64,000 nucleotides of DNA from Candidatus Ozemobacter sibiricus (GCA_003327425.1 QOQW01000002.1:223972-287971), one strand, 5' to 3'. Counted from the stretch's first letter, positions 24,035-62,284 are shown. Numbers and translations are program-made. Notes: generated by a model not told the origin, from the letters alone.

Positions 24035-24164
24035 CCGGGCGCCTGACCGGCCGCTCGGACGGCCCGCCGCCCATCAGGGCCGCCGCCCCGTTTCCCGCGC
24101 AGGCGTTGACCCGCCCGCCGGTTTGCGATACCGTGCAGGGGAGAGGAATCGTTGGTCTGGAGCC

Positions 24165-43863: not shown

Positions 43864-46779
43864 ATGGCGATGGGCGGGGCGCTCCGGTTCCTCCGATGGG
43901 CCTTTTTCTGCCTGTGCTTCCTGGTCTTTCCCTGGCTGGTGATCAACCTGGGCGTCCGGCACGCCTTCGAGGTGCAGTGGCAGACCTACACCGAGCGCGA
44001 GGCGGCCCGCGTCACCCGCTTGATGGAAAGCACCTTGCAGCGCGGCAGCGCCGAGACCTTCTACTACGCCTGGCTGCACCGCATCGTCGAGCGCGCCCAT
44101 CGGCAACCGCAGCCTGCCCTGGCGATGGCCTCCGAGGCGGCTCGACTGCAGCGCCGGTTTCCCGACCTGTTCAGCGTCTACGTGACCGATGGCGCCGGGG
44201 AAACCTTGTTTCCGCCGGTGCTGCCGCCCACCGTGTCGCGCTATTCGCTGCGCAAGTTGCATCAGACCTTCCTAACGCGACGAGCCTTGACGGCCGGCCT
44301 CAAGGACAAAACCCTCGTGCGGGTCCTCAGCCACTTCTGGGGCGAGGAACCGCCTCCGCAGACCATCCTCCAGGACATCCATGCCGAGCGGAAGGTCTGC
44401 CCCCTCTACCCGACCGGTCGCCGGACCTATTTCTACTGGTATGCCGGCCCCGCCGGCGGCCTGTTCGTCCATGTCCATCGCCAGGGCGCCCCACCCTGGT
44501 TCCCCTTGCGGGTCCAGGCCGCCTGGCTGAACCAGCGCAACGCCAATCTGGCGGTCGGGGTCGTTCCCTTCGGCGGCACTCCGGAAGCCCCCCGCCTGTC
44601 CCCCGACGAGGCCCGTCTGGTGACCCTCGCCATTCCTCGTCTCGACATCTCACCGCGCTCCTGGATGGTGAAGGACGATCGGCTGCTGACCCTGCTCCCG
44701 CTCGATACCACCTGGCGGTTCTGGAGCCTGCGCCGGCTCGACCCGCGGGTCCGCGGCACGCTCTGGCAGCGGCGGCTGGCCGCGACCTCGGCCCTGGCGG
44801 TGGGACTGGCCGCCTGTCTGTCCTTCCTGGTCATGGTCCTGGGCTGGGAGATGGCGCTCTCGATCCGCCACAAATTGATCGGCCTGTTCGGCATCTCCAC
44901 GGGCCTGCCCCTGGTGGTGCTGCTGGCCACCGGGTTCGACTACCTGCACCAGACGGAAGGCCGCTTGCTCCAGCAGACGCGCGACAACCTGCACGAGTCG
45001 GTCAAGAGCTTCGACGACAAGTTCCCCAAGATCCTCCAGGAATATCAAGCCATCCTCAATCGCAGCATCCGCACCTCCTACCGCGAAGACGGCACTTTCG
45101 ATTTCCGCCGTTTCACCCGCCTGCTCGAGGCGCGACAGGAGGCCATGCACTACGCCGCGCCCGCCCTGGTCAAACGGGATGGCAGCACCATCCGGACGCA
45201 GTGGACCAAAGACCAGTCCAGTCAGCGCCAGATCGACAAACTGCTCCTGGGCCTCGGCCTGAAGGCGCTGGTCACCTACAACCAGAACATGGGCTTCGCG
45301 ACCGACGTCCCGGCCAGGCCGCGCCAGATCATGGCGGCGGAAGCTCTCCTCTTCGAGGGCGAGACGGCGCATGGCCTGCTCCACGGGTTCATGAGCCGGA
45401 TCGGCGAGATCTCACGAATCCGGCTGGCGGGCACCGATCGTTTCCTGTTCTTCGATCTGATCACCGACCGCAGCGGCGCCGGCGAAGCGGTGGTGATCCT
45501 GATCTGGCATCCCAAGCACCTGTTCCGGGCCTATCTGCGGCGCCATCTGCTCCGCCGGCAGCGCGACCTGCCGGGCAGCCGGCTGTACGCCCTGTCGCTG
45601 GTGGATGCCAACTGGGACCTCCCCCCCCGCTCCCGCCGCCCCTGGCTGCGCCGCTTCCTGGAGCGGGTCCGGACCCGTCGGACGCTGGTGACCGACCAGC
45701 TCGAGATCGACGGCATCCCGCATCTGGCGGCCGGTTGGCCCGGCTTCGAAATCAGCGATTACATCATGGTCCAGACCTTCCCGCTGACCGGCATCCACGC
45801 CGAGATCGACCGCCTGCGCCGCTCCCTGCTGTGGTTCGGCCTGTTCAGCTTCGCCCTGTCGATCGCGGTGGCGGTCTCCCTCGCCCGCCAGTTCCTGACC
45901 CCCATCGGCTCGCTGGTCCAAGGGGTGCAGCTGATGCGGGAAGGGAAGTTCGCCCACCGGCTCCCGGTGTTCGACCGCGACGAACTCGGGCATCTGTCGC
46001 AGGCCTTCAATTCGACGATGGAAAGCCTCGAACAGCTCTCGGTCGCCCGCACCGTGCAGGAGCGCCTGTTTCCCAGCCAGGCGTTGCCGGTGGGCGATTT
46101 CACCATCGTGGGCCGCTCGGTGACCGCCTCCGAGCTGGGCGGCGATTACTTCGACTATTTCGCGCTGGGTCCCGACCGTGCCGTCATCCTGATCGGCGAT
46201 GTGGCCGGCCATGGCGTGGCCTCGGCCCTGCTGATGGCCATGGCCAAGGCCATCGTCACCCAGGAGGTCAAACGCGATCCCCGTCCCACGGCCATTTTGC
46301 AGGCGGTCAATCGGATGATCTTCGACAGCTTCCAGAAGCGGAGCATGATGACCTTCTTCTACGGCCTGCTCGATGTCACGGCCGGGACTCTGACCTATGC
46401 CAACGCCGGGCACAACCACCCGTACTGGCTGCCGGCGGGCGGCGACCCGGTCGAACTGGCATCCAGCGGCTTCCCGCTGGGCACCCGCAAGAACCCCGCC
46501 TACCAGGAGCAGACGATCGCCGTGGGCCCCGGCGACGACGTCTGGTTCTACACCGACGGCATCGTCGAGACCCCGGGCCGCGGCCCCGAGCCGCTGGGGT
46601 ATGCCGGCATGCTGCGGCTGTTCGCCGACCTGCGACCGTACCGGCCGGAAGACCGGCTGCCCAGGCTGTACCGCGCCTGCGAAGCGTTCCGCGACGGCCT
46701 GCCCCAGCCCGATGACATGACCGTGATCCTCCTGACCCGGGCGGCGCCAGTGCCGACGGGAACGAGGTCCGCCCCGTGA
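43864..46779 (+). CDS. Large membrane sensor with HAMP + PP2C/SpoIIE phosphatase (paralog of 21119-24034)
   Basis: Same four-TM layout ('SIRHKLIGLFGISTGLPLVVLLATGF' vs 'SISRKLLGLFFFAVGTPALVLLVVGF'), HAMP, 'GGDYFD', 'GDVAGHG', 'YTDGI' and 'DDMTV'. Confidence 0.92.
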   Translation: MAMGGALRFLRWAFFCLCFLVFPWLVINLGVRHAFEVQWQTYTEREAARVTRLMESTLQRGSAETFYYAWLHRIVERAHRQPQPALAMASEAARLQRRFPDLFSVYVTDGAGETLFPPVLPPTVSRYSLRKLHQTFLTRRALTAGLKDKTLVRVLSHFWGEEPPPQTILQDIHAERKVCPLYPTGRRTYFYWYAGPAGGLFVHVHRQGAPPWFPLRVQAAWLNQRNANLAVGVVPFGGTPEAPRLSPDEARLVTLAIPRLDISPRSWMVKDDRLLTLLPLDTTWRFWSLRRLDPRVRGTLWQRRLAATSALAVGLAACLSFLVMVLGWEMALSIRHKLIGLFGISTGLPLVVLLATGFDYLHQTEGRLLQQTRDNLHESVKSFDDKFPKILQEYQAILNRSIRTSYREDGTFDFRRFTRLLEARQEAMHYAAPALVKRDGSTIRTQWTKDQSSQRQIDKLLLGLGLKALVTYNQNMGFATDVPARPRQIMAAEALLFEGETAHGLLHGFMSRIGEISRIRLAGTDRFLFFDLITDRSGAGEAVVILIWHPKHLFRAYLRRHLLRRQRDLPGSRLYALSLVDANWDLPPRSRRPWLRRFLERVRTRRTLVTDQLEIDGIPHLAAGWPGFEISDYIMVQTFPLTGIHAEIDRLRRSLLWFGLFSFALSIAVAVSLARQFLTPIGSLVQGVQLMREGKFAHRLPVFDRDELGHLSQAFNSTMESLEQLSVARTVQERLFPSQALPVGDFTIVGRSVTASELGGDYFDYFALGPDRAVILIGDVAGHGVASALLMAMAKAIVTQEVKRDPRPTAILQAVNRMIFDSFQKRSMMTFFYGLLDVTAGTLTYANAGHNHPYWLPAGGDPVELASSGFPLGTRKNPAYQEQTIAVGPGDDVWFYTDGIVETPGRGPEPLGYAGMLRLFADLRPYRPEDRLPRLYRACEAFRDGLPQPDDMTVILLTRAAPVPTGTRSAP

Positions 46780-46987
46780 GCCGCCGGTCGGGGCCCGCCC
46801 GACCGCCGCGCGCGGCGCGCGCCGGCGGCCTCCCCCACTTCATCGCAGGAAGTACAAAATGAATATCTTGCACTTTATGGTACAAGGCAAAGTTGCCGTC
46901 CCGACTGGCGTCGCGCGGGCTGCCCTGGCAGGCGCCCCGACCCGGCCAGGCCGCCCCGGGCTGCGACCGCGCGGCGCCCCGGCTCTC

Positions 46988-48925
46988 GTGCCGCAACGCG
47001 GTGCCGTCACCGGCCGCGCGCTGTTCATCCTGCTGCTGGCGTGGCTGGTGCCGCTGACCGGGGCCATCCCCGCGGCGCGGGCCGCCACCCCCGCCGAGGA
47101 TCGCCTGGTCCAGGTCGGCCGCGAGCTGCTGCGCCCGCTGCTCGAGGAGCAGCCCCGCTTCGGGCTCACCCTGACGGCCGCCGCCGAGGAAGCGGCGGGC
47201 CCGCTCGATTTCCGGGCCGATCCGGCCAGCGGCGCCGGGCCGGCCGGCGCCCGCCTCCATCGCCTGACCATCCAGCGCCTCGCCACCGACGTCTGGGTGC
47301 TGCGGCTCGACAGCCCCTGGCGCGACGTCTTCCTGGCCCGCCAGCCCGATCAGACCACGCTCCTCCTGCCCCGCGCCGGGGTCGCCTTCGTCGGCGACGG
47401 GCCGCTGGCCAGCGACGCCCCCAGTCTGGCCGCCCCCGGCCTGCTGAGCCGGCTGGTGACGCCCGAAACCAGCCTCTCTGCCTTCCTGGCCTTCCTGGGG
47501 CCCTCCCTGTTCGAGACGGGTCTGCGACGCCTGGTGCTGCCGTTCCTGACGCCCGTCCCTGAAGATGAAGCGAATCGCCCCGCCTGGAGCTGGCACCTGG
47601 CAGGGGGAGCGCGCCTGCTGGTGCCGCGGGAAGGCCGGGCCTGGCTGGCCCTGCAGCTGCCGCACGGCTCGCGCGGCCTGGCCGGCCTGTCGGCCTTCAC
47701 GCTGGCCGCCCTGCCCGAGGACGCCCCCACCCCCCCCACGCCGACCGGCCCCTTCCGCACCAAGCGGGTGCCGCGGGCCGACCTCGAGCGCATGCTCTGC
47801 CGCGGGCTGGCTCGCGCGCTGTCGGTGAAGTTCCCGGGCCCGCCCGTGCTGAACCGGCCCGAGCCCGCCCGCGTGCCGCACGGCGAGCTGCGCCATCACG
47901 ATGGCCAGATCCTGGTGCGACTGGCCGGCACCCCGACCGAGATCGGCACCGCCCACGGCCGTCTGCTGGCCCGCGAGATCCGGCGCACCGTCGATTCGAC
48001 CCTGCACCTGGTCGGCCTGGTCGCCACCCTCGAGCAGGGGAAATGGTTCCCCGCCGAACTCGAAGAGGCCTGGCGACGCTGCGCCCCGCACATCCCCGCC
48101 GACCATCTCGCCGAGCTGCAGGCGATCGCCTCGGCCTGCCCCGACCTGACCTGGGATGAACTGCGCCTGTCGAGCATCTTCCCCGAGTACTTCCACTGTT
48201 CGGGGTTCGCCCTGTTCGGCCGGGCCACGGCCGACGGCACGCTCTACCACGGCCGCGTGCTCGACTACATGACCGAGATCGGCCTGCAGCAGGTGGCCGT
48301 GGCCTTCGTCGTCAAGCCGCAGGGCGGCCATGGCTTCCTCAACGCCGGCTACGCCGGCCTGCAAGGCGCGGTCAGCGGCATGAACGAGGCCGGTCTCTCG
48401 CTGGGCGAGATGGGGGGCGGCGGGCGCTACCAATGGGATGGCACCCCGATGTGCACCTTGATGCGCCGGGCCCTCGCCGAGTGCGGCACGCTCGAGGAGG
48501 TCAAGACCCTGTGGGCCAGCAGCCCGCGCACCTGCGAATATTTCTACGTCTTCGCCGATGCCAAGGGCCCCGCCGCCGTGGCCGTGCGTGCCACGCCGAC
48601 CGACCTCGAGTTCCTCGGCCCCGGCCAGAGCCATCCGTTGCTGGGGGAAGGGATCGCCGACGCCGTCGTGCTGTCGGCGGGCGGCCGCCTGAAGGAGCTG
48701 CGGCACCGGATCATGGCCGGCCACGGCACCTTCACCGCGACCGCCGCCCTCCGGCTGATGGACCGGCCGGTGGCCATGCGCAGCAACCTCCACAACTGCC
48801 TGTTCGTCCCGGCCCGGCAGGAGGCCTGGATCGCCAACGCCGGCGACGGCGTGCCCGCCGCCGAGATGCCGTATGTGCGCTATGACCTGCGGGAGCTGCT
48901 GCGCGACCTGCCGACGGGGCCCTGA
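46988..48925 (+). CDS. Exported C45-family (Ntn, autoproteolytic) acyltransferase/hydrolase with an extra N-terminal domain
   Basis: 'L.GTPTEIG.AHG.LL', nucleophile 'HCSGFA', 'HGRVLDY', 'G.VSGMNEAGL' and 'NLHN..F.P'. Start uncertain: the track gives 46859; GTG 46988 gives a normal signal peptide. Confidence 0.85.
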   Translation: MPQRGAVTGRALFILLLAWLVPLTGAIPAARAATPAEDRLVQVGRELLRPLLEEQPRFGLTLTAAAEEAAGPLDFRADPASGAGPAGARLHRLTIQRLATDVWVLRLDSPWRDVFLARQPDQTTLLLPRAGVAFVGDGPLASDAPSLAAPGLLSRLVTPETSLSAFLAFLGPSLFETGLRRLVLPFLTPVPEDEANRPAWSWHLAGGARLLVPREGRAWLALQLPHGSRGLAGLSAFTLAALPEDAPTPPTPTGPFRTKRVPRADLERMLCRGLARALSVKFPGPPVLNRPEPARVPHGELRHHDGQILVRLAGTPTEIGTAHGRLLAREIRRTVDSTLHLVGLVATLEQGKWFPAELEEAWRRCAPHIPADHLAELQAIASACPDLTWDELRLSSIFPEYFHCSGFALFGRATADGTLYHGRVLDYMTEIGLQQVAVAFVVKPQGGHGFLNAGYAGLQGAVSGMNEAGLSLGEMGGGGRYQWDGTPMCTLMRRALAECGTLEEVKTLWASSPRTCEYFYVFADAKGPAAVAVRATPTDLEFLGPGQSHPLLGEGIADAVVLSAGGRLKELRHRIMAGHGTFTATAALRLMDRPVAMRSNLHNCLFVPARQEAWIANAGDGVPAAEMPYVRYDLRELLRDLPTGP

Positions 48926-48986: not shown

Positions 48987-50651
48987 TCAATTCCCAGGCG
49001 AGGGTCCGCCGGCTTCGGTCAGGAAGAGCAGGAAGCTTTCCTGCGCGCCCACGCGGTCGAAGAACTCCCAGCGAGACTTCTCGTCGGGAGGGGCGAAGCG
49101 CAGCTCGCCGCTGGCCGCCTCGACGAAGAAGAACGGCGCCAGCAGGAGATGGTTCATCGAGTCCTGGCTGAAGAGGGCCGGCGCATTGGCCGGCAGGGGC
49201 ACCGCCGCGAACGGGGTCGGGTCGATAGGAGCCGGCACCGGCTTCCACAGGTCGACGACTTTCAAGCCTTCCGGAGTAGGGCGTCGCACCACCAGGCGGT
49301 TGGGCCCCATGAACGGGGCGAGCCCCCGGAAGAGATCGCAGATGCCAGCGACCGCCGCCGCGTGGAAATTGGCGGCCTCCTGCGGATATTCGTCGAGCAG
49401 GGCGAAGCCCTCCTGGAGGGAGATGAAAGGTTCGGCGAACGGATCTTCGAGGCCGACGCGGAAGGCATGCCCCATGCCCAGCGGGAAGAGGTCACCGAAC
49501 CCGTAGGGGTTGGGCAGGGTGTCGGAAAGCAGGCGCAGCAACTGCAGGGTATTGAGGGCGGCCGGGTCGGTCAGAGCCCGGAAGCAGGCCCGATCGGCGA
49601 CCTTGTTGCGGTGGCCGCAGGCGAAATAGGCGCAGACGAAACCGATGGTCAGCACCGAGCGGACTCGCTCGTAGACGTGCCGCAGGCGGAAGTTGACCTC
49701 GGCCAGGGGGGCGCGGTCGCGACCGCCGTCGGTCAGGGGCTCCAGCAGCCAGGCCGGCGCGGTCGGCCAGGTCTCGCGCACCTGCGCCGCCAGATCGGGC
49801 AGCGAGGGCAGCACGGCCTCGTCGCCAGGCGCCGGCGGCGGCGGGACCAGGGTCGCCGCCTCGGGATCGCCGCGGCGGGCCATCTGGAGCACGATCTCGC
49901 GCAGGCGGGCGGCGGTCTCGGGATCGCGGTGCGCCAGGTGCTGCCGGATGAGGGGCAGGACGTCGGGTCCCGACAGTCCGTCGAGGATGGCGGCGGCGAG
50001 CCGGGCCGGCGCCGGGTCATCCCCTGACAGCATGAAATGGAGGGCGGCCATGAACTGGTCGCGGCCGATCTGCTTGAGGAACTGGCGAACCAGGTAGACG
50101 ATCTCGGGGGCCGGGTCGGTCAGGCCGCGCAGCAGCGGGGGCAGCAGGCAGCCCTGGAAGACGGCGATCAGCGCTTCGCTGGCTTTGAGGCGAACAGCGG
50201 CCGCCGGATCCTGGAGGTAGCCCAGCAGGATGGGCAGGTTGCCCAGGTCGGGGTTATGACGCAGCACTTCGGCCACCAGCGCCTTGCCGTCAGGATGTTC
50301 CACGTCGGCGCCGAACTGCTGCACCGTGTACAGGATATTGCTCGACACCCGTTTGCGCAGGGCCCGCAAGGCGTACATCCGACGGGCGGGGTCGGGGCTC
50401 TGCAGCAGGGGCAGCACCGCTTCGGGGGTCGCCTGCTCGGGGAGGGTGGCGAACTCCTGCAGCTTTTTGAGCACCTTCAACGCGAGCGCCTGCAGATCGG
50501 GGGCGGGCTGGGTGCCGAGGAACCGCTGCACCAGATCCTGGGCTTCGATGATGGCCTGGTTGTGGATGATGGCCAGGGCCCGTTTCTGCAGGCCGGGGTT
50601 GGTGCCGGCCAGGGCTTTCCCCAGTTCTTCGAGTGACGTGGTCGACGCCAT
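48987..50651 (-). CDS. HEAT-repeat protein with an unknown C-terminal domain (554 aa)
   Basis: Repeated 'D/NP.(V/L)R..A..AL' units in the N-terminal half. The C-terminal ~250 aa is not recognised. Confidence 0.85.
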   Translation of the reverse strand: MASTTSLEELGKALAGTNPGLQKRALAIIHNQAIIEAQDLVQRFLGTQPAPDLQALALKVLKKLQEFATLPEQATPEAVLPLLQSPDPARRMYALRALRKRVSSNILYTVQQFGADVEHPDGKALVAEVLRHNPDLGNLPILLGYLQDPAAAVRLKASEALIAVFQGCLLPPLLRGLTDPAPEIVYLVRQFLKQIGRDQFMAALHFMLSGDDPAPARLAAAILDGLSGPDVLPLIRQHLAHRDPETAARLREIVLQMARRGDPEAATLVPPPPAPGDEAVLPSLPDLAAQVRETWPTAPAWLLEPLTDGGRDRAPLAEVNFRLRHVYERVRSVLTIGFVCAYFACGHRNKVADRACFRALTDPAALNTLQLLRLLSDTLPNPYGFGDLFPLGMGHAFRVGLEDPFAEPFISLQEGFALLDEYPQEAANFHAAAVAGICDLFRGLAPFMGPNRLVVRRPTPEGLKVVDLWKPVPAPIDPTPFAAVPLPANAPALFSQDSMNHLLLAPFFFVEAASGELRFAPPDEKSRWEFFDRVGAQESFLLFLTEAGGPSPGN

Positions 50652-50657
50652 GCCTTC

Positions 50658-50720
50658 ATTCTAGACCAACCTCTCCGACGAGTCAAAGAATTGACATGGG
50701 GTGAAGGGAATGGCTAGAAT
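50658..50720. promoter_or_regulatory. Back-to-back divergent sigma70 promoters, both apparently leaderless
   Basis: Plus strand: TTGACA 50691-50696, 18 nt, TAGAAT 50715-50720, 6 nt, ATG 50727. Minus strand: TTGACT 50686-50681, 17 nt, TAGAAT 50663-50658, 6 nt, ATG 50651. Confidence 0.75.
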
Positions 50721-50726
50721 GACTCC

Positions 50727-51083
50727 ATGCCTGAATTCTCCGTCACCACCGAGATCCGCGACCAACCGCGGGTGGTCATCGTCCGAACCGTCGGCTACAT
50801 CGACGATCACGCGGGCGAGAAGATCAAGAAGGTCGTCCAGGCCCTGATGGAAAAGGGCGAGAAGAATTTCCTGTTCAGCTTCGGCGGGTCGCCGGTGATC
50901 AACAGCACGGGGATCGCCTGCCTCCTCGAAGTCTGCGAGGAGATCGGGTTCAGCCTGCAGGGCAAGGTCGCGTTCTGCTGCCTGTCCAAGGCCATCGCCG
51001 AAGTGTTCAGAATGATGGGAATCACCAGCGTCTACCAGATCTACGACCAGGAGGAGTCGGCCCTGCCAGGCTTTTCCCGGTGA
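50727..51083 (+). CDS. STAS-domain protein (SpoIIAA/RsbV-like anti-anti-sigma factor)
   Basis: 118 aa with 'VIVRTVGYID', the phosphorylatable-Ser motif 'INSTGIACLL' and 'EVFRMMGI'. Confidence 0.9.
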   Translation: MPEFSVTTEIRDQPRVVIVRTVGYIDDHAGEKIKKVVQALMEKGEKNFLFSFGGSPVINSTGIACLLEVCEEIGFSLQGKVAFCCLSKAIAEVFRMMGITSVYQIYDQEESALPGFSR

Positions 51084-51180
51084 TCGTGGACCGGCGGATC
51101 ATGCACGCTGATACGCAGCGGTTGTTCATGTTCCGCGCGGCCCGCGGCGGGAAGCCCCATCCCCCGGACCGGACCGCGTC

Positions 51181-53109
51181 ATGACCAATCTGCTGGCGCT
51201 GCTGCTGGAAGATCTCGATTCCGAGAACCGAGCCGTCCGGTGCGATGCGCTCCGGCAGCTCGCCGAATGCGACCTCGATGCGCCCGCCCTGGCCCGGTTG
51301 AAAGCGCTGGCGACCAGCCGTGAGGAAGACCCCGAGATCCAGTTCCTGGCCCGGCAGGCCGTGCTCAACACCGAACGGCGGCGCCAGACGGCGGCCAGCG
51401 CCTTCCCCACCTTTACCGACACGCGCGACCTGGAAACCCGCCTGACCGCGCTGTCGCTGCCGGAGTTCCAGGAGGCGGTCGGCAGCTGCCCGGCCGCCGC
51501 CGTGCCTGCGCTGATGGAGGTGCTGCGCCGTCGTCTGCCCGACGAGAGCCAGACCGACCGGGCCCCGGTCATCCTGTCCGCCTTCCGCCGCTGGGGCCGC
51601 CCAGAGGATGCCGACCTGCTGCTGCCGTTCCTCTCCGCCAGGGATCCGGTGCAGGTGATCGAAGTGATCGGCGCCCTCGAGCGGGTGGCGCCCCGCAAAC
51701 TGTTCGAGAAGATCGGCCTGGCCTTGACCTCGCCTTATCCCACCGTCCAGAACCGAGCGCTGCGCACCATCCTGCGCTTCCACTTCATGAAGGGGGTCGA
51801 GTACCTACGGCAGATGTTCGCGTCGGAACATGCCTCGGTGCGGGCGGCCGCCGTGATGCAGTGCATGACCATCCCCTTCCACAAGGTGCAGGAGCTCATC
51901 TTCAACGCGCTGGCCCTGGAAGAGGATCCGCGCGTGCTGGCCCGCGCCGCCTACCTGCTCTACCTGAACCCGAGCGAGCACACGGTCTACTGGCTGATGG
52001 ACATCGCGAGCACCGCCGGCCAGGCCAAGCAGAAGTGGTGCCAGGACTGCATCGCCGCGGTCCTCGAATCGATCCGTCTGTCCGGCATCATGGAGGAGAG
52101 CGTGGAGGAGTTCACCGAGCGCATTCAGCGCCAGCTCGAAGCTCGGCAACGCAATGCGCTGTTGAGCACCTTCTTCGAGGAACTGGAGCACAAGGATCCG
52201 ATGCGGCGCTACGAAGCGATCGAAGCCCTGCGCGAGCACCAGACCCTGCCCGAGGTGCGCGAGAAGTTCCAGGCCCTGTGGCAGAACGACCCCGACAAGC
52301 GCATCAAAGGGCTGTTGACCGCCATCTTCGCCGAGAACCCTGATCGGAAACGGCTGCAGGCCGAGCTGGCCCCTGACAAGTTCCAGAAGCTGCTGCGGGA
52401 CGAGCAACTGGCCCTGCTGGGCCAGGTCAAAAGCTGCGAGGAGTTCTCCTTCGTGCGCTGCCACCTGCAACGCCTCTCGCGGATGCGGCTCGATCCGCTG
52501 GTGGTGGCCGAAGCAGTGCGCCTGCTGGGGCGGTATGGCGACGCCCAGGAGGAGCTGCCCTTCCTGATGATGTCGCTCAAGAGCGGCGAGGGGCTGATCC
52601 AGGCGCGGGCCATCGAGGGGCTCGGGCGTCTCGCCCCCGACGCCCTGCTCAAAGAGCTGCCGCGACTGATCCGGGAGGCCGATCCCACCGTCCGTTCCGC
52701 CGCCCTGCGCACCTTCTTCCGGCTCGACAAGACCCAGGCGATGAAAGCGCTGCAGGACATGCTGCTGTCGGTCAGCGCCGCGGTCAAAGAGCAGGCGCTG
52801 GTCTGCCTGGCCCAGTTGAGCTATGCGGCCACTCGCCCTCTGCTGCTGCGCTTCGTCAAAGAAGAGGCCAACCCGAACCTGGTCCGGAAAGCGGGGGTGA
52901 TTTTGCGCAACAATCCTGATCTCGATGCCGTCCGCAATGTATACGACACCATGCGCCTGGCGCGTGAACCTCGGCGATCCCTCTTGAAAGAGATTTTGCA
53001 GGAGTGTCTGGAGGGATGCCTGGCGGCCGGCCTCCTGCAAGGCACCGTCCAGGAGCATCTGGAAAGACTGCGGCGCGAGGCGGCCGCCGCTGAGATGCCG
53101 ACGATCTGA
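51181..53109 (+). CDS. HEAT-repeat protein (642 aa) with an internal duplication
   Basis: Many HEAT units ('ENRAVRCDAL', 'YPTVQNRAL', 'HASVRAAAV', 'DPMRRYEAI', 'DPTVRSAAL'). Two similar repeat blocks end in 'LYLNPS' and 'LRNNPD'. Confidence 0.87.
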   Translation: MTNLLALLLEDLDSENRAVRCDALRQLAECDLDAPALARLKALATSREEDPEIQFLARQAVLNTERRRQTAASAFPTFTDTRDLETRLTALSLPEFQEAVGSCPAAAVPALMEVLRRRLPDESQTDRAPVILSAFRRWGRPEDADLLLPFLSARDPVQVIEVIGALERVAPRKLFEKIGLALTSPYPTVQNRALRTILRFHFMKGVEYLRQMFASEHASVRAAAVMQCMTIPFHKVQELIFNALALEEDPRVLARAAYLLYLNPSEHTVYWLMDIASTAGQAKQKWCQDCIAAVLESIRLSGIMEESVEEFTERIQRQLEARQRNALLSTFFEELEHKDPMRRYEAIEALREHQTLPEVREKFQALWQNDPDKRIKGLLTAIFAENPDRKRLQAELAPDKFQKLLRDEQLALLGQVKSCEEFSFVRCHLQRLSRMRLDPLVVAEAVRLLGRYGDAQEELPFLMMSLKSGEGLIQARAIEGLGRLAPDALLKELPRLIREADPTVRSAALRTFFRLDKTQAMKALQDMLLSVSAAVKEQALVCLAQLSYAATRPLLLRFVKEEANPNLVRKAGVILRNNPDLDAVRNVYDTMRLAREPRRSLLKEILQECLEGCLAAGLLQGTVQEHLERLRREAAAAEMPTI

Positions 53110-53261: not shown

Positions 53262-54284
53262 TCAGCCGCCGCGCAGCCGGGCCAGGATATGCTGACGGAT
53301 CCGCTGTTCGTCTTCCCGACCGCGGCCGAGGTCGCTGAGCGGGCTCTCGCGGACCCGGCCGTAGGTCAGGGGTTTGCTCTGGATGCGGATGCGGAACTGA
53401 CGGCCTTCCCCTTCGATGAGGGCCCGCACCAGCTGACCGGCGCTGCGCAGCGACCAGCCGGTGGTGCCGAACATGATCTTGGTGCCGGTGTTCCAGAAGA
53501 TGCGATCGACCCCGGCATCGGACATCGCCTTGTACAAAAGACCCATGACCTGATTGATGGTGGCCCCGCCGATGTCGAGGCGGTCGGCCCGCCCTTCGGC
53601 GGTCACCTGATGGCTGCGGATCTCGGTCTGGGTGATCTCGTGGAGCTGGAACTGCTGGAAGTAGATCCGGGCGAGGTTGGGCCGCACCTCGTGGGTGAAG
53701 CGGGGCGACGCGAGGAAGCGGCCCACCGCCCCGACGAGGTCGGGCCCTTCCTCCAGGCCGAGACGGGTGTTGTCGGCCTCATGGGTATAGCGATAGGTGA
53801 ACCGCACCTGGGTACGGTCGCCCTTGGTCCTGGTTTCGGTCTCGACATCGAGGCTGTGGTAGAGCTTCTGGGCGTAGCCTTCCCAGGTGCCGCGCAGGAG
53901 CCGGCGGTAGGTGCTCCAGGCCAGATCCTTCACCCCGAATTCGCGGAAGGCCTCATACAGAACGGGCAGCAGGAAATCGGCCTGGAGGTTGGTCCAGAAG
54001 AGGTCGCGCTCGAGGGGCTGCCAGACGACCGGTTCGGTATTCTCGACCTTCCCGTCAGGATCGATCAGGCTGAAGCGTTTCTGGGAGAAATGCCGGACCA
54101 GGAAATCATAGGCGATGTTGATCTCCTTGATGCGGTCCTCGGCGATGCGGCGCATGCCGGGATCGTCGACGAACCGGTCAGGATGCCATTCCTTGGCCAG
54201 GCGGCGATAGGCCGCCTTGACATCGTTGAAGGTCGCCGAGGACCGGAGGCTGAACAACCGGAGATGTTTCTGCAGTTCCTTCAT
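53262..54284 (-). CDS. J-domain (DnaJ class C) protein with a duplicated C-terminal alpha/beta domain
   Basis: 'FNDVKAAYRRLAKEWHPDRF...A.DRIKEINIAY' retains the HPD motif. Start ATG 54284. Confidence 0.9.
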   Translation of the reverse strand: MKELQKHLRLFSLRSSATFNDVKAAYRRLAKEWHPDRFVDDPGMRRIAEDRIKEINIAYDFLVRHFSQKRFSLIDPDGKVENTEPVVWQPLERDLFWTNLQADFLLPVLYEAFREFGVKDLAWSTYRRLLRGTWEGYAQKLYHSLDVETETRTKGDRTQVRFTYRYTHEADNTRLGLEEGPDLVGAVGRFLASPRFTHEVRPNLARIYFQQFQLHEITQTEIRSHQVTAEGRADRLDIGGATINQVMGLLYKAMSDAGVDRIFWNTGTKIMFGTTGWSLRSAGQLVRALIEGEGRQFRIRIQSKPLTYGRVRESPLSDLGRGREDEQRIRQHILARLRGG

Positions 54285-54498: not shown

Positions 54499-56871
54499 GT
54501 GCAGGATTTCGTCCGGACCCACCACCGCCAGATCCGGTGGTTCCTGCTGGTGGGCGCCATCGCGGTGGCGGCATTCCTGGGGATTTCCACGCTGGTCTCC
54601 TGGCGAGCCGGCCAGCTGGCCTTCGAAGATGCCATGGCGACCGCCCGGGCCGCGGCCTATCGCCATGGCGCCGAACTGACCGTTCCCATGGTCGAGGCGC
54701 TGGCCACCGCCCGCACCCTGGCCCACAGCCTCGAGGGGATGCTGCGACAGCGCCCGCACTTGTCGCGGCAGGTCGTCGATCAGATGTTCATCCGCCTGAT
54801 CGAAGCCCAGCCCTTCCACTTCGGGGCCTGGGCCGTCTTCCTCCCCCAGCGGTTCGACGGCCGGGATGCGGAATTCGCCGGCCAGCCCGGGCAGGCCGCC
54901 GATGGCGGGTATGTGCCGTTCGCCTACCGCAAGAATGGACGGGTGGTCTTCCAGCACGACAACTACACCTATGAACGGACCCAGCCGTATTTCACCATCC
55001 CCTTCCAGACCGGCGAGGAAGCCGTCATCGACCCCTACGTCGACCAGATGGCCGAGAAGGCCATCATGAGCAGCCTGTGCGTGCCCATTCGGGAAAACGG
55101 CGAGGTGATCGGGGTGGCCGGCATCGACCTGCTGCTGACCGACCTGGGCCAGGCGGTCGCCGGCATCGCGCCCGTTCCCGATGGGTATGTCTTCCTCGTG
55201 GCCAACAACGGGATTATGGTCGGCCATCCCGACCCCACCGCCATCAACCGCCCCCTGACCGAGCTGGGCGCGCCGCCGCCGGTTCTGGAGGCCATCAAGA
55301 ATGGGCAGGAAATCCGGGTGCGGGCGCCGCACTGCCGGAACGGCGAGCCCTGCCATGTCCAGTATGTGCCGATCCGGTTCGGCCGGGCTCCCACCGCGTG
55401 GTCGCTCGGTGTGGCCATTCCCGACCGGTTCATTCGCGAGCGCGCGCGCACCGTCAGCCTCGGCGCCGCCCAGATCAGCCTCGCCTCGCTCCTGCTGCTG
55501 ACCGTCGTCCTGGGCATCGCCTACCGGGCCGTTCTACATCCCTTGCGCCAGGCGGAAGCCACCCTGCGCCGCTTCTTCGATCATGTGCACGATGCCGTGG
55601 TCGTCCATGATGCCGAGGGGAACATCCTGACCGTCAACGATCAGATGCTGGCGATGTATGGGCTGACCCGCGCCGATCTCGAGCGGTTCAATCACGTGCG
55701 GTTCCTGATTCCGCCGGGGGAAGACCCCGCCCACCTGACCGAGATGGTGACCACTGCCCTGCGCGACGGCAAGGCCCAGCGGGAATGCCGGATCTGGCGG
55801 CCGCTGCGGCAGGAGGAATTCTGGGCCGACATCCACCTGCGGCCCCTGCTGGTGCTCGACCAGACCGTGCTGCTCGCCACCATCCGCGACATCACCGACC
55901 GGCGGCGGGCCGAGGCGGAAATGCGCCGCCTGGCCAGCATCGTCGAGAACAGCCTCGAATTCATCAGCATCGCCACCCTGGCCGGCGAGATCATCTACCT
56001 CAACCCGGCCGGCTGCCAGATGGTCGGCCTCGACCCCGCCGAGCAGGGCAGCGGCCACCAGCTCGCCGAGATCCTGGAAGAGGGGTGGCGGCTCCGCCAT
56101 CAGGCGGAAGAGCGGCAGACGCTGCGCGCCACCGGCCGCTGGCGAGGGCAGGTCATTTTGCGGCATCTCCGCTCGGGGCGCCACATTCCCATGGAAGGCA
56201 CCAGCTTCATCCCTGGCTTCCCCATCTTGGATGAACGAACGGTGGTCGTCTCCATCCTCCACGACATCTCCGAACGGCTGGCCGCCGAGGCCGAACGCAT
56301 CGCCACCGCGCTCCGCACCGAACGCCAGATGCGCTGCATCATCCGGCTGGCCACCTCGCTCGGGCGCCAATCCCAGGACCCGGCCAGGCTGCTGCGCTTC
56401 CTCACCGAAGAGATCGCGGCCACCCTCGACGTCGACCGCGCGAGTCTGTGGCTGGCCACGCCCACCATGGATCGCCTCACCTGCGCCGACCTGTACGATG
56501 CCCGCGGAAGGAGCCACACGGCAGGGCAGGTCCTGGTGGCCACCGAGGCGCCGTTGTTCTTTCTCGCCCTGCAGGCCGAACGGGCCATCGACGCCCCGGA
56601 CGCCGTGCTCGACCCCCGCACGGCGGAATGCGCCGAAACCTACCTCCTGCCCAACCATATCTCCTCCCTGCTGGCCGCCCCGATCCGCCGCTCGGGGACC
56701 GTGGTCGGCGTGGTCAGTGGGGAGCATCGCGGTCCCCCGCGGCGCTGGCTGCCTGATGAAATCAGGTTCATGGGCGAGGTGGCCGATCAGGTCGCCCAGA
56801 TCATGACGAGAATGGAGCACCTGTGGCCGCCGACGCCACCGACGCCATCGGCGACGCCCCCCGCGTCGTAG
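54499..56871 (+). CDS. dCache-PAS-PAS-GAF membrane sensor with no recognisable output domain
   Basis: TM, dCache ('FDGRDAEFAG', 'PYF..P', 'PYVD', 'VAGID'), TM, two PAS ('ATIRDITDRR', 'SILHDISER') and a GAF ('ISSLLAAPI...VVGVVSGEH...W.PDE'), then a stop. SD GGAGGAG before the GTG. Confidence 0.9.
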   Translation: MQDFVRTHHRQIRWFLLVGAIAVAAFLGISTLVSWRAGQLAFEDAMATARAAAYRHGAELTVPMVEALATARTLAHSLEGMLRQRPHLSRQVVDQMFIRLIEAQPFHFGAWAVFLPQRFDGRDAEFAGQPGQAADGGYVPFAYRKNGRVVFQHDNYTYERTQPYFTIPFQTGEEAVIDPYVDQMAEKAIMSSLCVPIRENGEVIGVAGIDLLLTDLGQAVAGIAPVPDGYVFLVANNGIMVGHPDPTAINRPLTELGAPPPVLEAIKNGQEIRVRAPHCRNGEPCHVQYVPIRFGRAPTAWSLGVAIPDRFIRERARTVSLGAAQISLASLLLLTVVLGIAYRAVLHPLRQAEATLRRFFDHVHDAVVVHDAEGNILTVNDQMLAMYGLTRADLERFNHVRFLIPPGEDPAHLTEMVTTALRDGKAQRECRIWRPLRQEEFWADIHLRPLLVLDQTVLLATIRDITDRRRAEAEMRRLASIVENSLEFISIATLAGEIIYLNPAGCQMVGLDPAEQGSGHQLAEILEEGWRLRHQAEERQTLRATGRWRGQVILRHLRSGRHIPMEGTSFIPGFPILDERTVVVSILHDISERLAAEAERIATALRTERQMRCIIRLATSLGRQSQDPARLLRFLTEEIAATLDVDRASLWLATPTMDRLTCADLYDARGRSHTAGQVLVATEAPLFFLALQAERAIDAPDAVLDPRTAECAETYLLPNHISSLLAAPIRRSGTVVGVVSGEHRGPPRRWLPDEIRFMGEVADQVAQIMTRMEHLWPPTPPTPSATPPAS

Positions 56872-57734: not shown

Positions 57735-58802
57735 ATGCCGCGCCTGCCGATCGCTATCGATCCCACCGACAAACTGCCGGTCTACCGCCAGGTGGTCGAT
57801 CAGATCACCCAGTTGATCCGCTCGGGAAAGCTGGCACCGGGAGACCGCCTGCCCCCCGAGCGCGATCTGGCCGCCGCCCTGGGCGTGGCCCGCGGCACGA
57901 TCAAGCAGGCCTACGACACCCTGGTTCAGCAGCGACTGGTCGTGGCCACCCAGGGCCGCGGCAGTTTCGTCGCCGGCCTGGCGCGCCCCGAACCGAGCGA
58001 TCGCCGCCAGCGGGCGGTCAGCGACATTCTCGAGCTGATCTGCCGCCTGGAGGAAATGCGCTTCACCCACCGCGAGATCGCCAATCTGTTCACCGCCCTG
58101 CTGGCCCAGCGCGAAGAGCTGACCAGCCGCCTGTCGATCGCGATCGTCGACTGCAACCCCGAAGCGCTGGCCATCTACCATCACCAGATCGCCCTGTTGA
58201 GCCACCTGCAGGTGAAGGAACACCTGCTGGGCAGTCTGGCGGCCGCCGACCGGCCGGCCGGCATCCTGGCCAGCTACGACCTCATCGTCACCACCCTCAA
58301 TCATCACGAAGAGCTGTGCCGGCTCGTCCCCGACCTGGCCGATCGCCTCGTGCCCGTGGCCGTCTCGCCATCGTCGGCCACGCTGATCGCACTCGGCCGC
58401 ATTCCGACCGGCCGGCCCATCGGGGCTCTCTACCAAAGCGAACGATTCTGCGGCATCATCGAACACTGGCTGCGCCGGTTCGGCCTGACCGATCCCCTGC
58501 ATGGCTTCGCCCTTCCCGACCCCCAGAGCCGCCCGGATGCCCCCTCCTCCCGACCGGCCGACGATGACGCCGTGGAAGCCTTCGACCGGTTCCTGCGTGG
58601 GCTGGCCACGCTGATCGTCCCCCCCGGCTACGCCTTGCAGCTACCGGGACGCTTCATGGGGGCGCTCCAGCGCTTCCGGGAGAACGGCGGCCTCCTCGTC
58701 CATTTCGACTACCAGATCGACCCCGGTTCGCTGCTGCATCTCGAAGAGCGACTGAAGCTCCTGCTGCAGCATCCCATCATCGATGGAAGGAAGACGGCAT
58801 GA
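57735..58802 (+). CDS. GntR-family transcriptional regulator with a large C-terminal domain
   Basis: wHTH '[10 protein letters not shown]...[28 protein letters not shown]...G.GSFV' followed by ~270 aa of alpha/beta sequence. Confidence 0.92.
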
Positions 58803-59230
58803 ACACCCCCCCCATCAATATCGTTCTTGGCGTGATCGGCTTCGACTGCCACTCGGTCGGCAACAAGATCCTCGAAGCGTTTTTCACCGAGCAGGGTTTC
58901 AAGGTCACCAACCTCGGCGTCATGGTCAGCCAGGAGGAGTTCCTGCAAGCGGCCATCGAGACCGGAGCCAAGGCGATCCTGGTCTCCTCCTTGTACGGCC
59001 ACGGCGAGATCGATTGCGTCGGCCTGCGCGAGAAGTGCCGCGAGCAGGGGCTCGACGACATCCTCCTCTACGTCGGGGGGAACCTGGTCGTCGGCAAGAC
59101 CCCGTTCGAACAGGTCGAGGCTAAATTCAAGGCCATGGGCTACGACCGGGTCTTCGGCCCCGACTGCGATCTGGCCACCGTGGCCCGCCTGCTGCGGGAA
59201 GACCTGGCCGCCCGCCAGCGCGCCGACTGA
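58799..59230 (+). CDS. glmS: Glutamate (methylaspartate) mutase sigma subunit, B12-binding
   Basis: '[16 protein letters not shown]' (DxHxxG), 'SSLYGHGE', '[10 protein letters not shown]' and 'MGYDRV'. ATGA overlap with gntR. Confidence 0.96.
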
Positions 59231-60864
59231 TGGACCGCCCCGCCCTGCCACCGACCGACCGCGCGGCCGAACGCGCGGCCGAACGTCCGTCCGTGGCCCG
59301 GCCGGACGACCACGCGCCGACGCTGGCCATCGGGCTCGACATCGGCTCGACCTTCACCAAAGGCGCCCTGTTCCGGCTGGGCCCGGGCGACCCCTGCCTG
59401 CTGCGCCGGGCCGCCACGCCGACCACCACCGCCCATCTGCCCGACGGCGCCGGCACCGTCATCCGCCACCTGCTCGACCTCCCCCCCGCCTGGACCTGGG
59501 AAGACCTGCCCCGCACCAGCCTTCCGAGCTCGGTCGGCGCTGGCGACGGCCAGACGAGCGATGAGGTTCGGCCGCTCCCGCCCATCCATTTCACGTCGTC
59601 GGCCAAAGGGGGATTGCGGGTCGCCGTGGTCGGCCTCGTGCCCGAGCTGTCGGTGCAGATCGGCCGGCTGGTCGCCTGGTCGGCCGGTGCCCGCCTGACC
59701 GGCACCTATTCCTATCGGCTGACCGACTCCGCCCTCGCCGAGATCGAGCAGACCCGCCCCGACATCGTGCTGTGGTGCGGCGGCACCGACGGCGGCCACG
59801 AGCGCAGCGGCCGGGAGAACGCCCAGCGGCTCGCCCGCTCTTCCTATGACGGCACGCTGATCTATGCCGGCAATGCCCTGCTGGCCGATGAGGTCCGGCA
59901 GACCCTGGCCCACAAGCGGCTGGTGGTGACCGCCAACGTGATGCCCGAGTTCGGTCGGTTCAATGGCGAGCCGGCGCGGGAAGCCATTCGCACCATCTTC
60001 CTGCAGACCATCGTGCAAGGGAAAGGGCTCGATCGGCTGGCCGCCCTGACCGGCACCGAACCGGTGCCCACCCCGCGCGCCATGTTCGATCTGGTGGGCG
60101 CCATCGCCGACCACTGCCCCGACTGGCGCGAATTCATCGCCATCGACCTGGGCGGCGCCACCACCGATGTCTATTCCTGCGCGCCGGCCTTCCGGGGCGG
60201 CGAGGGCTTGCGCCTGCGCGGCCTGGTCGAACCCGAGCGCAAGCGCTCGGTGGAAGGCGACCTCGGGCTGCGCATCAGCGCCTCGGCCCTGGCCGCCGTG
60301 CTGGCCGGCGATGACGTGCCGGTCACCACCGTCGGCCTGCCGCCGGTCACCCCGACCGCGCTGGCGGCCTGGGTCGAACGGGTCGGCGCCCATCCCGAAA
60401 CGCTGCCCGCCAGCCCCGAAGAAGAAGCCGCCGATGCCTGGCTGGCCGCCGGCTGCATCCGCCATGCCCTGCGGCGGCATGCCGGGCGCCTCGAGCCGGT
60501 GTGGCTGCCGGAAGGCCAGGTCTGGGTGCAGACCGGCAAAGACCTCCGCCCCGTCCCGCGACTGGTGCTGACCGGGGGCTACCCGGCCGCCCACCCGCGC
60601 CTGCCCCTGTTCGAGCTGGCCGAGCCGGCGGCGCGGCGCGCGCCCGAGCTTCTGGTGCCACAGGCGCCGCGCTGCTTCGTCGACCATCTCTACCTCTGGC
60701 CGCTGCTGGGGCCGTTGGTGGCCCGCTTCCCGGCGGCCGCCGCCCGCCTGGCCGTCGCCAGCCTCACCGCCGTGCCGGCGGTGGCATCCTGCCCCGACGT
60801 TCCTCATACGGCAACCACTGACAAGGAGTCGCACCCCTGTGAAATCCTATCAGATTCCCTTTGA
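59230..60864 (+). CDS. glmL: Glutamate mutase accessory protein GlmL/MutL (ASKHA-fold)
   Basis: 'DIGSTFTK', 'SSAKGGL', 'GGTDGG', 'PTP.A', 'DLGGATTDVYS' and 'RSVEGDLGLR', in its usual position between S and E. Confidence 0.92.
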   Translation: MDRPALPPTDRAAERAAERPSVARPDDHAPTLAIGLDIGSTFTKGALFRLGPGDPCLLRRAATPTTTAHLPDGAGTVIRHLLDLPPAWTWEDLPRTSLPSSVGAGDGQTSDEVRPLPPIHFTSSAKGGLRVAVVGLVPELSVQIGRLVAWSAGARLTGTYSYRLTDSALAEIEQTRPDIVLWCGGTDGGHERSGRENAQRLARSSYDGTLIYAGNALLADEVRQTLAHKRLVVTANVMPEFGRFNGEPAREAIRTIFLQTIVQGKGLDRLAALTGTEPVPTPRAMFDLVGAIADHCPDWREFIAIDLGGATTDVYSCAPAFRGGEGLRLRGLVEPERKRSVEGDLGLRISASALAAVLAGDDVPVTTVGLPPVTPTALAAWVERVGAHPETLPASPEEEAADAWLAAGCIRHALRRHAGRLEPVWLPEGQVWVQTGKDLRPVPRLVLTGGYPAAHPRLPLFELAEPAARRAPELLVPQAPRCFVDHLYLWPLLGPLVARFPAAAARLAVASLTAVPAVASCPDVPHTATTDKESHPCEILSDSL

Positions 60865-62284
60865 CCGCTTCCTGAGCATTCGGGCCGAGGTCTTGAAGAC
60901 CTGGCCGACCGGCGAGGGTCTGACCCTCGAAGACGGCCTCGCCTACCAGCGGACGCTGCCGCCCGCCAAGAACTTCGCGCGCGCCATGGCGACGGCCTCC
61001 CGCGAAGGCCGCATCCTTCTGCAGCCCCGGGCCGGCGTCGCCCTCATCCCCGATCACATCAAGCTGCTGCAGTATCTCGAAACCGAAGGGGAGGCCGACC
61101 TGCTGCCCACCACGATCGATGCCTACACCCGGCAGAACCGCTACCAGGAAGCGGCGAACGGCATCCAGAAATCGCTGGAGGCCCGAGCCTCGCTGCTCAA
61201 CGGGTTTCCCGCCGTCAATCACGGCGTGGCGGGCTGCCGCCAGGTGGTCGAGAGCGTCCGCTCGCCGATCCAGGTCCGGCATGGCACCCCCGATGCGCGC
61301 CTGCTCGCCGAGATCACCCTGGCCGCCGGCTTCACCTCGTTCGAAGGGGGCGGCATCAGCTACAACATCCCCTATGCCAAGAAAGTGCCGCTGGCCAAAT
61401 CCATCGAAGACTGGAAATACGTCGACCGGCTGGTTGGCTGGTATGAGGAACAAGGCATTCCGATCAACCGAGAACCGTTCGGTCCCTTGACCGGGACGCT
61501 CGTTCCCCCCTTCATCAGCCACGCCGTCGCCATCATCGAAGGCGTTCTGGCGCTGCGGCAAGGAGTGCGCTCGCTGACCCTGGGCTACGGCCAGGGGGGC
61601 AACCTCATCCAGGACGTCGCCGCCATGGTCACCCTCAAAGAGCTGGCCCACGAGTACTTCGCGCGAGAAGGGTTCACCGATTACGAGCTGACCACCGTCT
61701 TCCATCAATGGATGGGCGGGTTCCCCGAAGACGAGGCCAAGGCCTTCGCGGTGATCTGCTGGGGTTCGACGGTGGCCGTCTTCGCTCGCGCCGACAAGAT
61801 CATCGCCAAATCGCCGCACGAGGCCATGGGCATTCCGACCAAGGAAGCCAACGCGCAAGGGCTGCGGGCCAGCCGGCAGGTGATCAACATGCTGCGCGAC
61901 CAGAAGTTCGCCGGCGGCGCCGATTTCGAGCGCGAGACCGATCTCATCCGGCGCGAGGTGCGCTGCCTGCTCGACAAGGTCTATGAGCTGGGCCACGGCG
62001 ATCTCGAAGCCGGCACCATCGCCGCCTTCGCGGCGGGCGTGCTCGACGTCCCCTTCGCTCCGGCCGCCTGCAACCACGGCAAGATCCTGCCGATGCGCGA
62101 CCACGAGGGCTACATCCGGGTCTTCAATCGAGGCCAGCTGCCGCTGTCGGCCGAGATCCTCGATTTCCACCGGTCCCGGCTCGAAGAGCGGGCCAAAGCC
62201 GAAAAACGGGAGGTATGCTTCCAGATGGTGACCGACGACATCTATGCGGTCAGCAAAGGCCGCCTGGTGGGGAGGCCGCGATGA
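60839..62284 (+). CDS. glmE: Glutamate (methylaspartate) mutase epsilon subunit
   Basis: 'R.EVL..WPTG', 'QPRAG', 'TIDAYTRQNRY', 'NGFPAVNHG', 'RHGTPD' and 'EGGGISYNIPY'. SD AAGGAG before the GTG. Confidence 0.97.
   Translation: MKSYQIPFDRFLSIRAEVLKTWPTGEGLTLEDGLAYQRTLPPAKNFARAMATASREGRILLQPRAGVALIPDHIKLLQYLETEGEADLLPTTIDAYTRQNRYQEAANGIQKSLEARASLLNGFPAVNHGVAGCRQVVESVRSPIQVRHGTPDARLLAEITLAAGFTSFEGGGISYNIPYAKKVPLAKSIEDWKYVDRLVGWYEEQGIPINREPFGPLTGTLVPPFISHAVAIIEGVLALRQGVRSLTLGYGQGGNLIQDVAAMVTLKELAHEYFAREGFTDYELTTVFHQWMGGFPEDEAKAFAVICWGSTVAVFARADKIIAKSPHEAMGIPTKEANAQGLRASRQVINMLRDQKFAGGADFERETDLIRREVRCLLDKVYELGHGDLEAGTIAAFAAGVLDVPFAPAACNHGKILPMRDHEGYIRVFNRGQLPLSAEILDFHRSRLEERAKAEKREVCFQMVTDDIYAVSKGRLVGRPR

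Follow-up and report, generated by a model that had tools for sequence, protein, structure and literature searches.

We analysed a 64,000-nucleotide stretch of DNA (QOQW01000002.1:223972-287971, hereafter the window) from Candidatus Ozemobacter sibiricus, a metagenome-assembled genome (MAG) of the Riflebacteria (Ozemobacteraceae), an uncultured phylum. On its plus strand lies a gene for a 118-residue, single-domain STAS protein (50727-51083), followed, 97 bp from the STAS stop to the next start (51084-51180), by a gene for HEAT2, a 642-residue protein made up entirely of HEAT repeats (51181-53109). Comparison with related loci indicates that the conserved unit here is a two-gene cassette, STAS then HEAT2, confined to Riflebacteria. 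An earlier note on this DNA had proposed a wider HEAT-STAS-HEAT module that also took in a divergent HEAT gene (HEAT1, 48987-50651, minus strand) and, nearby, a receptor PP2C phosphatase and a J-domain protein. The STAS-HEAT2 core of that proposal is retained in ten lineages and co-duplicated; HEAT1, the PP2C and the J-domain protein are unlinked from it in more distant relatives and drop out as parts.

The STAS-HEAT2 pair and its paralogue

A STAS gene lies directly upstream, on the same strand, of every HEAT2 orthologue found. This adjacency holds in 10 of 10 lineages, across which identity falls to 40% for STAS and 35% for HEAT2. In searches that included one of 5.8 billion sequences, HEAT2 orthologues (48-96% identity) came from Riflebacteria only, and pair loci lie in the window, CALLCO, CAZKPI, JAAYVD, MNYA, L008, L010 and L011; a metagenome scan with HEAT2 added two loci, both from the clade at 70% identity. 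More distant pairs were reached by searching with STAS. At L037 the pair is intact, with STAS 60% identical and HEAT2 35% identical over 635 residues, and at L040/L041 STAS is 53% identical and a gap of 2 nt separates it from HEAT2. Annotation assigns the named relatives to Candidatus Riflebacteria or Ozemobacteraceae, and the region's proteins have identical copies in the MAG GCA_020725785.1.

The genes that flank the pair vary. Across at least six unrelated contexts, its neighbours are a C45-family gene; a response regulator and histidine kinase; alanine racemase; QueC/PTPS; a metallo-beta-lactamase-fold gene and a SPOUT gene, with LpxB farther upstream; or ExbB-ExbD-TonB. The spacer between the two genes ranges in relatives from 2 to about 200 bp.

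The most distant STAS matches (32-38% identity), here STASb, adjoin a second large HEAT protein, HEAT2b. HEAT2b and HEAT2 align co-linearly for 613 residues (23% identity, E = 1e-33, 124 bits) and share the internal duplication; every other HEAT protein reached at most 48 bits against HEAT2 in the search of 5.8 billion sequences. HEAT2b stands next to STASb in all four genomes that carry both genes on one contig (L042, 8918-13668; L043, 168-2927; L039, 3-2599; L045, 10-1725), and the gene order, HEAT2b then STASb, is inverted relative to that of STAS and HEAT2. L043 and L045 come from JAAYVD and CAZKPI, respectively, both close relatives of the window organism. A flagellin gene follows STASb in L039, L042 and L043, and the L045 contig stops before that point. 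The existence of two paralogous pairs, adjacent despite inverted order, is the strongest evidence here for a STAS-HEAT2 partnership. Because the first pair is retained while its surroundings change, and because two paralogous pairs are both adjacent, a functional partnership between STAS and HEAT2 is supported.

We considered two further readings of the paralogous pair. An extracytoplasmic function (ECF) sigma factor near the pair in L042 was dropped as a candidate output, as it is not conserved in L043, and a simple anti-sigma-28 reading gains no support from the flagellin promoter downstream of STASb, which looks sigma-70-like with a Shine-Dalgarno sequence and not sigma-28-like. The HEAT2b of L042 is 789 residues long, with an additional C-terminal part that contains a hydrophobic helix. 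Upstream of the pair in L042 and L044 are two conserved genes that encode 189 and 367 residues.

The STAS and HEAT2 proteins and their promoter

The STAS protein matches Pfam PF01740 at 49.6 bits (cut-off 22.6; E = 3.6e-13) over residues 9-112 of 118, and a profile search of the PDB places SpoIIAA (1TH8 and 1AUZ, E = 4e-12) as its closest solved relatives. The motif INSTG, which the earlier note had described as an intact phospho-serine motif, occupies residues 58-62, and in the HMMER alignment (vnStG over mdSsG) its Ser60 falls on the phospho-serine position of SpoIIAA, which we take to be Ser58. Ser60, Asn59 and Gly62 are invariant in 13 of 13 STAS orthologues and paralogues, the patterns SPxxNSxG and GYxD are common to the STAS and STASb groups without exception, and the serine and its following glycine are kept over 28-100% STAS identity. 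Just before the serine, where SpoIIAA and RsbV have aspartate, all members carry asparagine. The window holds only this one STAS gene. In the CAZKPI orthologue (L013, 599-955) similarity is lost after residue 86, probably through a frameshift in a low-coverage assembly (coverage 2.6).

HEAT2 crosses the Pfam threshold for HEAT_2 (PF13646) in three stretches (E = 6.6e-25, 87.6 bits), and its sequence matches are designed alphaRep/HEAT proteins. The similarity that had been noticed between the two halves of the protein reflects a real duplication: residues 130-318 align with residues 441-633 at 26% identity (E = 1e-17). Three helix-end NP(D/S) motifs mark the solenoid, LYLNPS at 260-265, NPD at 386-388 and ILRNNPDL at 574-581; the latter and LYLNPS, like VLRHNPDL in HEAT1 (residues 129-136), lie where the earlier note had placed them. 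Comparison with known families returned little that is specific. The NblB equivalog model (NF045915) gave a HEAT protein of the locus 29.3 bits against a cut-off of 300, and PADLOC gave the HEAT proteins only generic HEAT-ARM matches of 26-29 bits and the STAS, PP2C, C45, J-domain and Cache sensor proteins none.

Gene calls made from codon-position GC, with piecewise annotation of about 36 genes in the window, agree with the arrangement first noticed, in which STAS lies between two HEAT genes, one divergent and one 97 bp downstream. The divergent spacer between HEAT1 and STAS is only 75 bp long and contains two promoter-like sites where 0.2 would be expected. Facing STAS is a strong sigma-70-type promoter for the STAS-HEAT2 unit (50691-50720, plus strand), TTGACA-N18-TAGAAT, which matches the consensus at 11 of 12 positions and whose -10 box stops 6 nt short of the ATG. 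Facing HEAT1 is TTGACT-N17-TAGAAT (50658-50686, minus strand), its -10 box likewise 6 nt before the HEAT1 ATG. The shorter pattern TANAAT-N6-ATG occurs in the window twice, at these two starts only, and the 64 kb contain a single copy of the complete pattern from promoter to ATG, with zero expected. A -10 box this close to the start codon implies that STAS mRNA begins at or beside the ATG and would be leaderless.

This architecture is widely kept. Among the nine STAS-HEAT2 lineages read, TTGACA-N17/18-TA(G/C)AAT-N6-ATG precedes STAS in seven, all of high GC content (the window, L004, L007, L008, L010, L011 and L015); the AT-rich L037 has an approximate match only, and L040/L041 have a Shine-Dalgarno-like aggagag before the STAS ATG instead. 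Before STASb, all four loci (L039, L042, L043 and L045) carry TTGAC(A/T)-N17-TA(G/T)(C/G)AT-N6-ATG. With its invariant distance from promoter to ATG, this regulator is a clean candidate for conserved leaderless expression. In the spacer between STAS and HEAT2 we found no convincing terminator, only a 5-bp stem that lacks a proper T-run.

A candidate phospho-switch and its alternatives

The pair resembles the SpoIIAA-SpoIIAB-sigmaF and RsbV-RsbW-sigmaB systems of Bacillus in its single-domain STAS protein with an aligned serine, in the order of its genes, STAS first and presumed partner second, and in a genome that also encodes SpoIIE-family PP2C phosphatases. It differs in what follows STAS, a 642-residue HEAT solenoid without a HATPase domain, and in having no linked kinase or sigma factor. 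We propose that STAS acts as a phospho-switch with the HEAT2 solenoid as its direct partner, in the slot of RsbW, a reading that we judge about evenly balanced between right and wrong. STAS would bind HEAT2 directly, and HEAT2 would stand where canonical operons encode RsbW/SpoIIAB, at once kinase and anti-sigma factor. Ser60 would be phosphorylated by an unlinked serine kinase and dephosphorylated by a PP2C; whether STAS keeps hold of HEAT2 would depend on this phosphorylation, and HEAT2 in turn might sequester or release a client. The client of the HEAT2b-STASb pair may connect to flagellin expression. The idea that STAS controls HEAT solenoids had been raised in the earlier note. What endures of it is a STAS protein with an intact serine whose tie is to HEAT2 and not to a neighbouring kinase or sigma factor; the inclusion of HEAT1 does not endure.

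More broadly, and only tentatively, the HEAT2 family could be an unrecognised class of direct STAS partner, a sequestering solenoid that replaces RsbW, deployed in at least two cassettes of which one is wired to flagellin, with a kinase-less core whose phosphorylation enzymes the many receptor PP2Cs of the phylum would supply in trans. We hold this to be possible rather than probable.

Several observations weigh against a phospho-switch of this kind. We found no RsbW-type kinase among the roughly 36 genes of the window, and no small HATPase_c or RsbW-type kinase beside STAS-HEAT2 in any of the six contexts. In HEAT2 we recognise neither a catalytic nor a DNA-binding domain. The STAS protein scores 42.1 bits with the anti-sigma-factor antagonist model TIGR00377 (NCBIfam), below the cut-off of 53.45. 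The adjacency of the two genes demonstrates functional coupling only statistically, and the sequences compared are MAGs and short contigs rather than complete genomes. Finally, a constitutive complex that needs no phosphorylation is a serious alternative.

In that alternative, STAS would be a permanent accessory subunit of HEAT2, in the way that the STAS protein MlaB serves the ABC ATPase MlaF, or a sensor of a small ligand, and the serine would be structural or ligand-binding. We consider this unlikely, yet to be taken seriously, since in none of the contexts read, at least six in number, does a linked kinase accompany the pair. The confinement of PP2C linkage to one subclade points the same way, as does the asparagine before the serine in all members, and a constitutive-looking consensus promoter would suit a stoichiometric pair. 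Against it, the nearest solved relatives of the protein are the phospho-regulated SpoIIAA and not MlaB or transporter STAS domains, and the serine and next glycine remain invariant over the full 28-100% range of identity. Further, the genome is rich in SpoIIE-type PP2C, with three such genes in the window, and STAS proteins are typical substrates of these phosphatases (PMC11418112).

A second possibility is that STAS takes part in canonical partner switching elsewhere, antagonising an RsbW-type kinase at another locus. HEAT2 would then do no more than share a transcript with STAS and could be, for instance, a scaffold or chaperone-like protein unrelated to the switch. The SpoIIAA-like sequence with its intact serine would fit, the genome sequence inspected amounts to 64 kb, and STAS kinases may be unlinked, as in Anabaena (PMC13555669). 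This reading accounts neither for the position of HEAT2 after STAS in 10 of 10 lineages nor for the retention of HEAT2b beside STASb despite the inversion, and we regard it as quite improbable. At the locus itself, no Sigma70 domain or sigma factor is present among the roughly 36 window genes, in agreement with what had first been noticed for both sigma factors and anti-sigma kinases. The missing kinase, the missing sigma factor and the TIGR00377 score below cut-off place the locus outside the canonical RsbU/V/W-sigma systems.

For the proposed phospho-switch, the phosphatase nearest at hand is the membrane receptor PP2C at 43864-46779 (plus strand), which has transmembrane segments, a HAMP domain and a SpoIIE domain and lies 2.2 kb from the HEAT1 stop, in keeping with the receptor PP2C previously remarked on at 2 kb, and 3.9 kb from STAS. 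Its linkage to the pair recurs in JAAYVD only and is absent in L008, L010, L011, L015, L037 and L040; by a rough estimate from the observed density, a PP2C would fall within 4 kb of any given gene about one time in three by chance. It is only a candidate for the STAS phosphatase. A full-length paralogue at 21101-24034, also a HAMP-SpoIIE protein (977 residues, 30% identity), lies in the same window. After this second PP2C comes a GAF-GAF-PAS adenylate/guanylate cyclase (21101-26510 for the two), and the third SpoIIE gene (2876-4156) runs into the start of a gene for a hybrid histidine kinase (4153-7116).

There is established precedent for STAS-only proteins that act on non-sigma targets or on unknown ones: SypA/SypE in Vibrio fischeri, BtrV/BtrW in Bordetella, RbaV in Rhodobacter and HmpV in Nostoc (PMC8256260). 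Like them, the STAS protein described here bears the serine and would act on a target beyond an anti-sigma factor, or on an unknown one. Unlike them, it has no RsbW-like kinase encoded beside it; HEAT2 is fixed there instead as a candidate target. Two PP2C-controlled switches act directly on enzymes, HenR-All4160 of Anabaena on a glycosyltransferase, with kinases that can be encoded elsewhere (PMC13555669), and SiaABCD of Pseudomonas on a diguanylate cyclase (PMC8457831). The protein at 43864-46779 is, like SiaA, a HAMP-PP2C membrane receptor, although its match to the NCBIfam SiaA model is weak (69.7 bits, cut-off 700). Both systems differ from the present pair in having enzyme effectors, HEAT2 being a repeat scaffold that lacks a catalytic domain. 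All4160 differs further in that its STAS domain is fused to the effector; the STAS protein of the window has a gene to itself.

The STAS protein HsbA of Pseudomonas aeruginosa works with non-kinase partners, FlgM and HsbD, and is tied to flagellar gene control. HEAT2b-STASb is comparable in lying directly upstream of flagellin, an arrangement seen in relatives only and not in the window pair; HEAT2 itself has no sequence relation to FlgM or HsbD. As an alpha-solenoid of HEAT repeats, HEAT2 is also of a kind with generic bacterial HEAT_2/PBS-lyase-like proteins, such as NblB, and with the A subunit of eukaryotic PP2A.

We found no paper that unites a STAS domain, HEAT repeats and partner switching, and the Riflebacteria papers listed, judging by their titles and abstracts, are not concerned with this locus. 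For most non-canonical STAS-only proteins, including SypA, RbaV, HmpV and BtrV, the direct target is unknown (PMC8256260). Comparative genomics here offers one specific candidate, a HEAT solenoid that is genetically locked to its STAS protein and co-duplicated with it. If the two proteins bind, partner switching would gain a scaffold-type output, and the pair would provide a simple two-protein system for asking how a non-kinase partner is recognised by a STAS phospho-switch; two protein families exclusive to an uncultured phylum would also be placed in a functional context for the first time. The STAS-HEAT2 locus would extend an already established non-canonical partner switching rather than found a new kind.

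HEAT1 and the clade-specific neighbours

HEAT1 (554 residues) matches Pfam HEAT profiles in its N-terminal half only (HEAT, PF02985, at E = 1.3e-10 and HEAT_2 at 6.9e-10; 39.5 and 40.9 bits). An exhaustive profile search revealed a family of 24 representatives (E < 1e-30), restricted to Riflebacteria and conserved over its full length down to 28% identity, where a word-indexed search had given four close relatives only. The family occurs in 12 assemblies, and in 7 of these HEAT2 was not detected. In JADFYG and CAZADH, which contain both families, the HEAT1 homologues lie on different contigs from STAS-HEAT2. At most loci read in other genomes, including one of the two CAZADH copies, HEAT1 is accompanied by a divergent Zn_ribbon_8 gene, a conserved 446-residue gene that weakly matches P-loop NTPases, a TPR gene and a downstream DJ-1/PfpI gene. 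On this comparative evidence, HEAT1 is a separate family, a neighbour of the conserved unit and not a member of it.

We also compared HEAT1 and HEAT2 directly. BLASTP gives marginal alignments centred on the NPD motif (E = 0.004-0.008); profile-profile comparison gives a probability of 13.7% without superposing the NPD motifs, and the HEAT1 family conserves the N and P of the motif but not the D. We rejected the motif as a mark of specific ancestry on the strength of that profile probability. The shared cap motif that the earlier note had called distinctive is thus present in both proteins, and is weak evidence that they are specifically related.

These findings bear on a three-part scaffold in which HEAT1, STAS and HEAT2 would act together with the receptor PP2C and the J-domain protein, the state of STAS controlling both solenoids. 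Such a scaffold could draw on the synteny of a seven-gene block (PP2C-C45-HEAT1-STAS-HEAT2-J-Cache/PAS/GAF) with JAAYVD, on the back-to-back conserved promoters of HEAT1 and STAS with their common leaderless design, and on the weak NPD-centred similarity just described. The block is shared with JAAYVD only, at 67-77% identity and with breakpoints on both sides, so that PP2C and J-domain adjacency is found in one close relative only, and the other contexts of the pair are without a PP2C or J-domain gene. In L015, whose HEAT2 is 70% identical, the C45 gene lies directly before STAS with no HEAT1 between them; in L007 an extra 228 bp has been inserted between the promoters of HEAT1 and STAS. The separate contigs in JADFYG and CAZADH, the usual position of HEAT1 between Zn-ribbon and DJ-1/PfpI genes, and the low profile probability argue in the same direction. 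The comparative context thus largely refutes the three-part scaffold, which we consider very improbable. The linkage that it presupposes persists for STAS-HEAT2 in all lineages found and is confined to close relatives for HEAT1 and the PP2C. A chance neighbourhood of unrelated STAS and HEAT genes, conceivable in a genome where HEAT-repeat and signalling genes are common, is refuted by the adjacency in 10 of 10 lineages and the co-duplicated second pair, and its likelihood is negligible.

An AlphaFold2 model of HEAT1 built on a 20-sequence alignment has a mean predicted local distance difference test (pLDDT) score of 85; in an earlier model built on four sequences, the C-terminal domain had a pLDDT of 30-50 and was unusable. 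The current model predicts a paired-helix HEAT domain (residues 7-268), a disordered linker (273-279), a helical bundle (284-448) and a small beta subdomain (452-519) followed by two terminal helices. A Foldseek comparison against the PDB, suggested earlier for the C-terminal half, was run with the whole model and returned only generic ARM/HEAT matches with template modelling (TM) scores below 0.2. The same result removes specific support from the parallel once drawn with scaffolds of eukaryotic phosphatases: the PP2A structures 2pf4 and 2pkg and the Integrator-PP2A complex gave TM scores of 0.11-0.17, the same as other ARM/HEAT proteins, which leaves analogy only. A profile of the C-terminal domain (residues 284-547) found no PDB match below E = 0.9 and no Pfam match below E = 0.01. 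This domain (49003-49801) occurs in Riflebacteria only and carries the motifs AYFxxGxRxxxADRxCFRA, DLFP, NRL and PF.

Another HEAT1-like paralogue, 38-39% identical over residues 1-251, is present in JAAYVD and CALLCO (L031 and L032, from 10001 to the contig end) in a different upstream context. The window organism probably carries more than one HEAT1-family gene.

The remaining genes of the block, together with HEAT1 and the PP2C, appear from their distribution to be clade-specific neighbours acquired in one subclade. The C45-family gene (46859-48925, plus strand) encodes an autoproteolytic acyltransferase/hydrolase proenzyme with an N-terminal hydrophobic segment and accompanies the pair throughout the clade at 70-100% identity. 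The J-domain gene (53262-54284, minus strand; 340 residues) faces HEAT2, as had been noticed from the sequence, and we treat it as context only. So too the dCache-PAS-PAS-GAF membrane sensor (54499-56871, plus strand), which ends after its GAF domain with no recognisable output domain and whose position beside the J-domain gene is conserved in JAAYVD. Farther downstream (57735-63540) are genes for a GntR regulator, the S subunit of glutamate mutase, MutL, the glutamate mutase E chain and methylaspartate ammonia-lyase, which presumably constitute the methylaspartate route of glutamate fermentation. By coordinate arithmetic, the window, which must therefore derive from a more contiguous assembly, spans a contig break of the GenBank MAG at about 19825-19832, where DYEH01000013.1 ends and DYEH01000069.1 starts.

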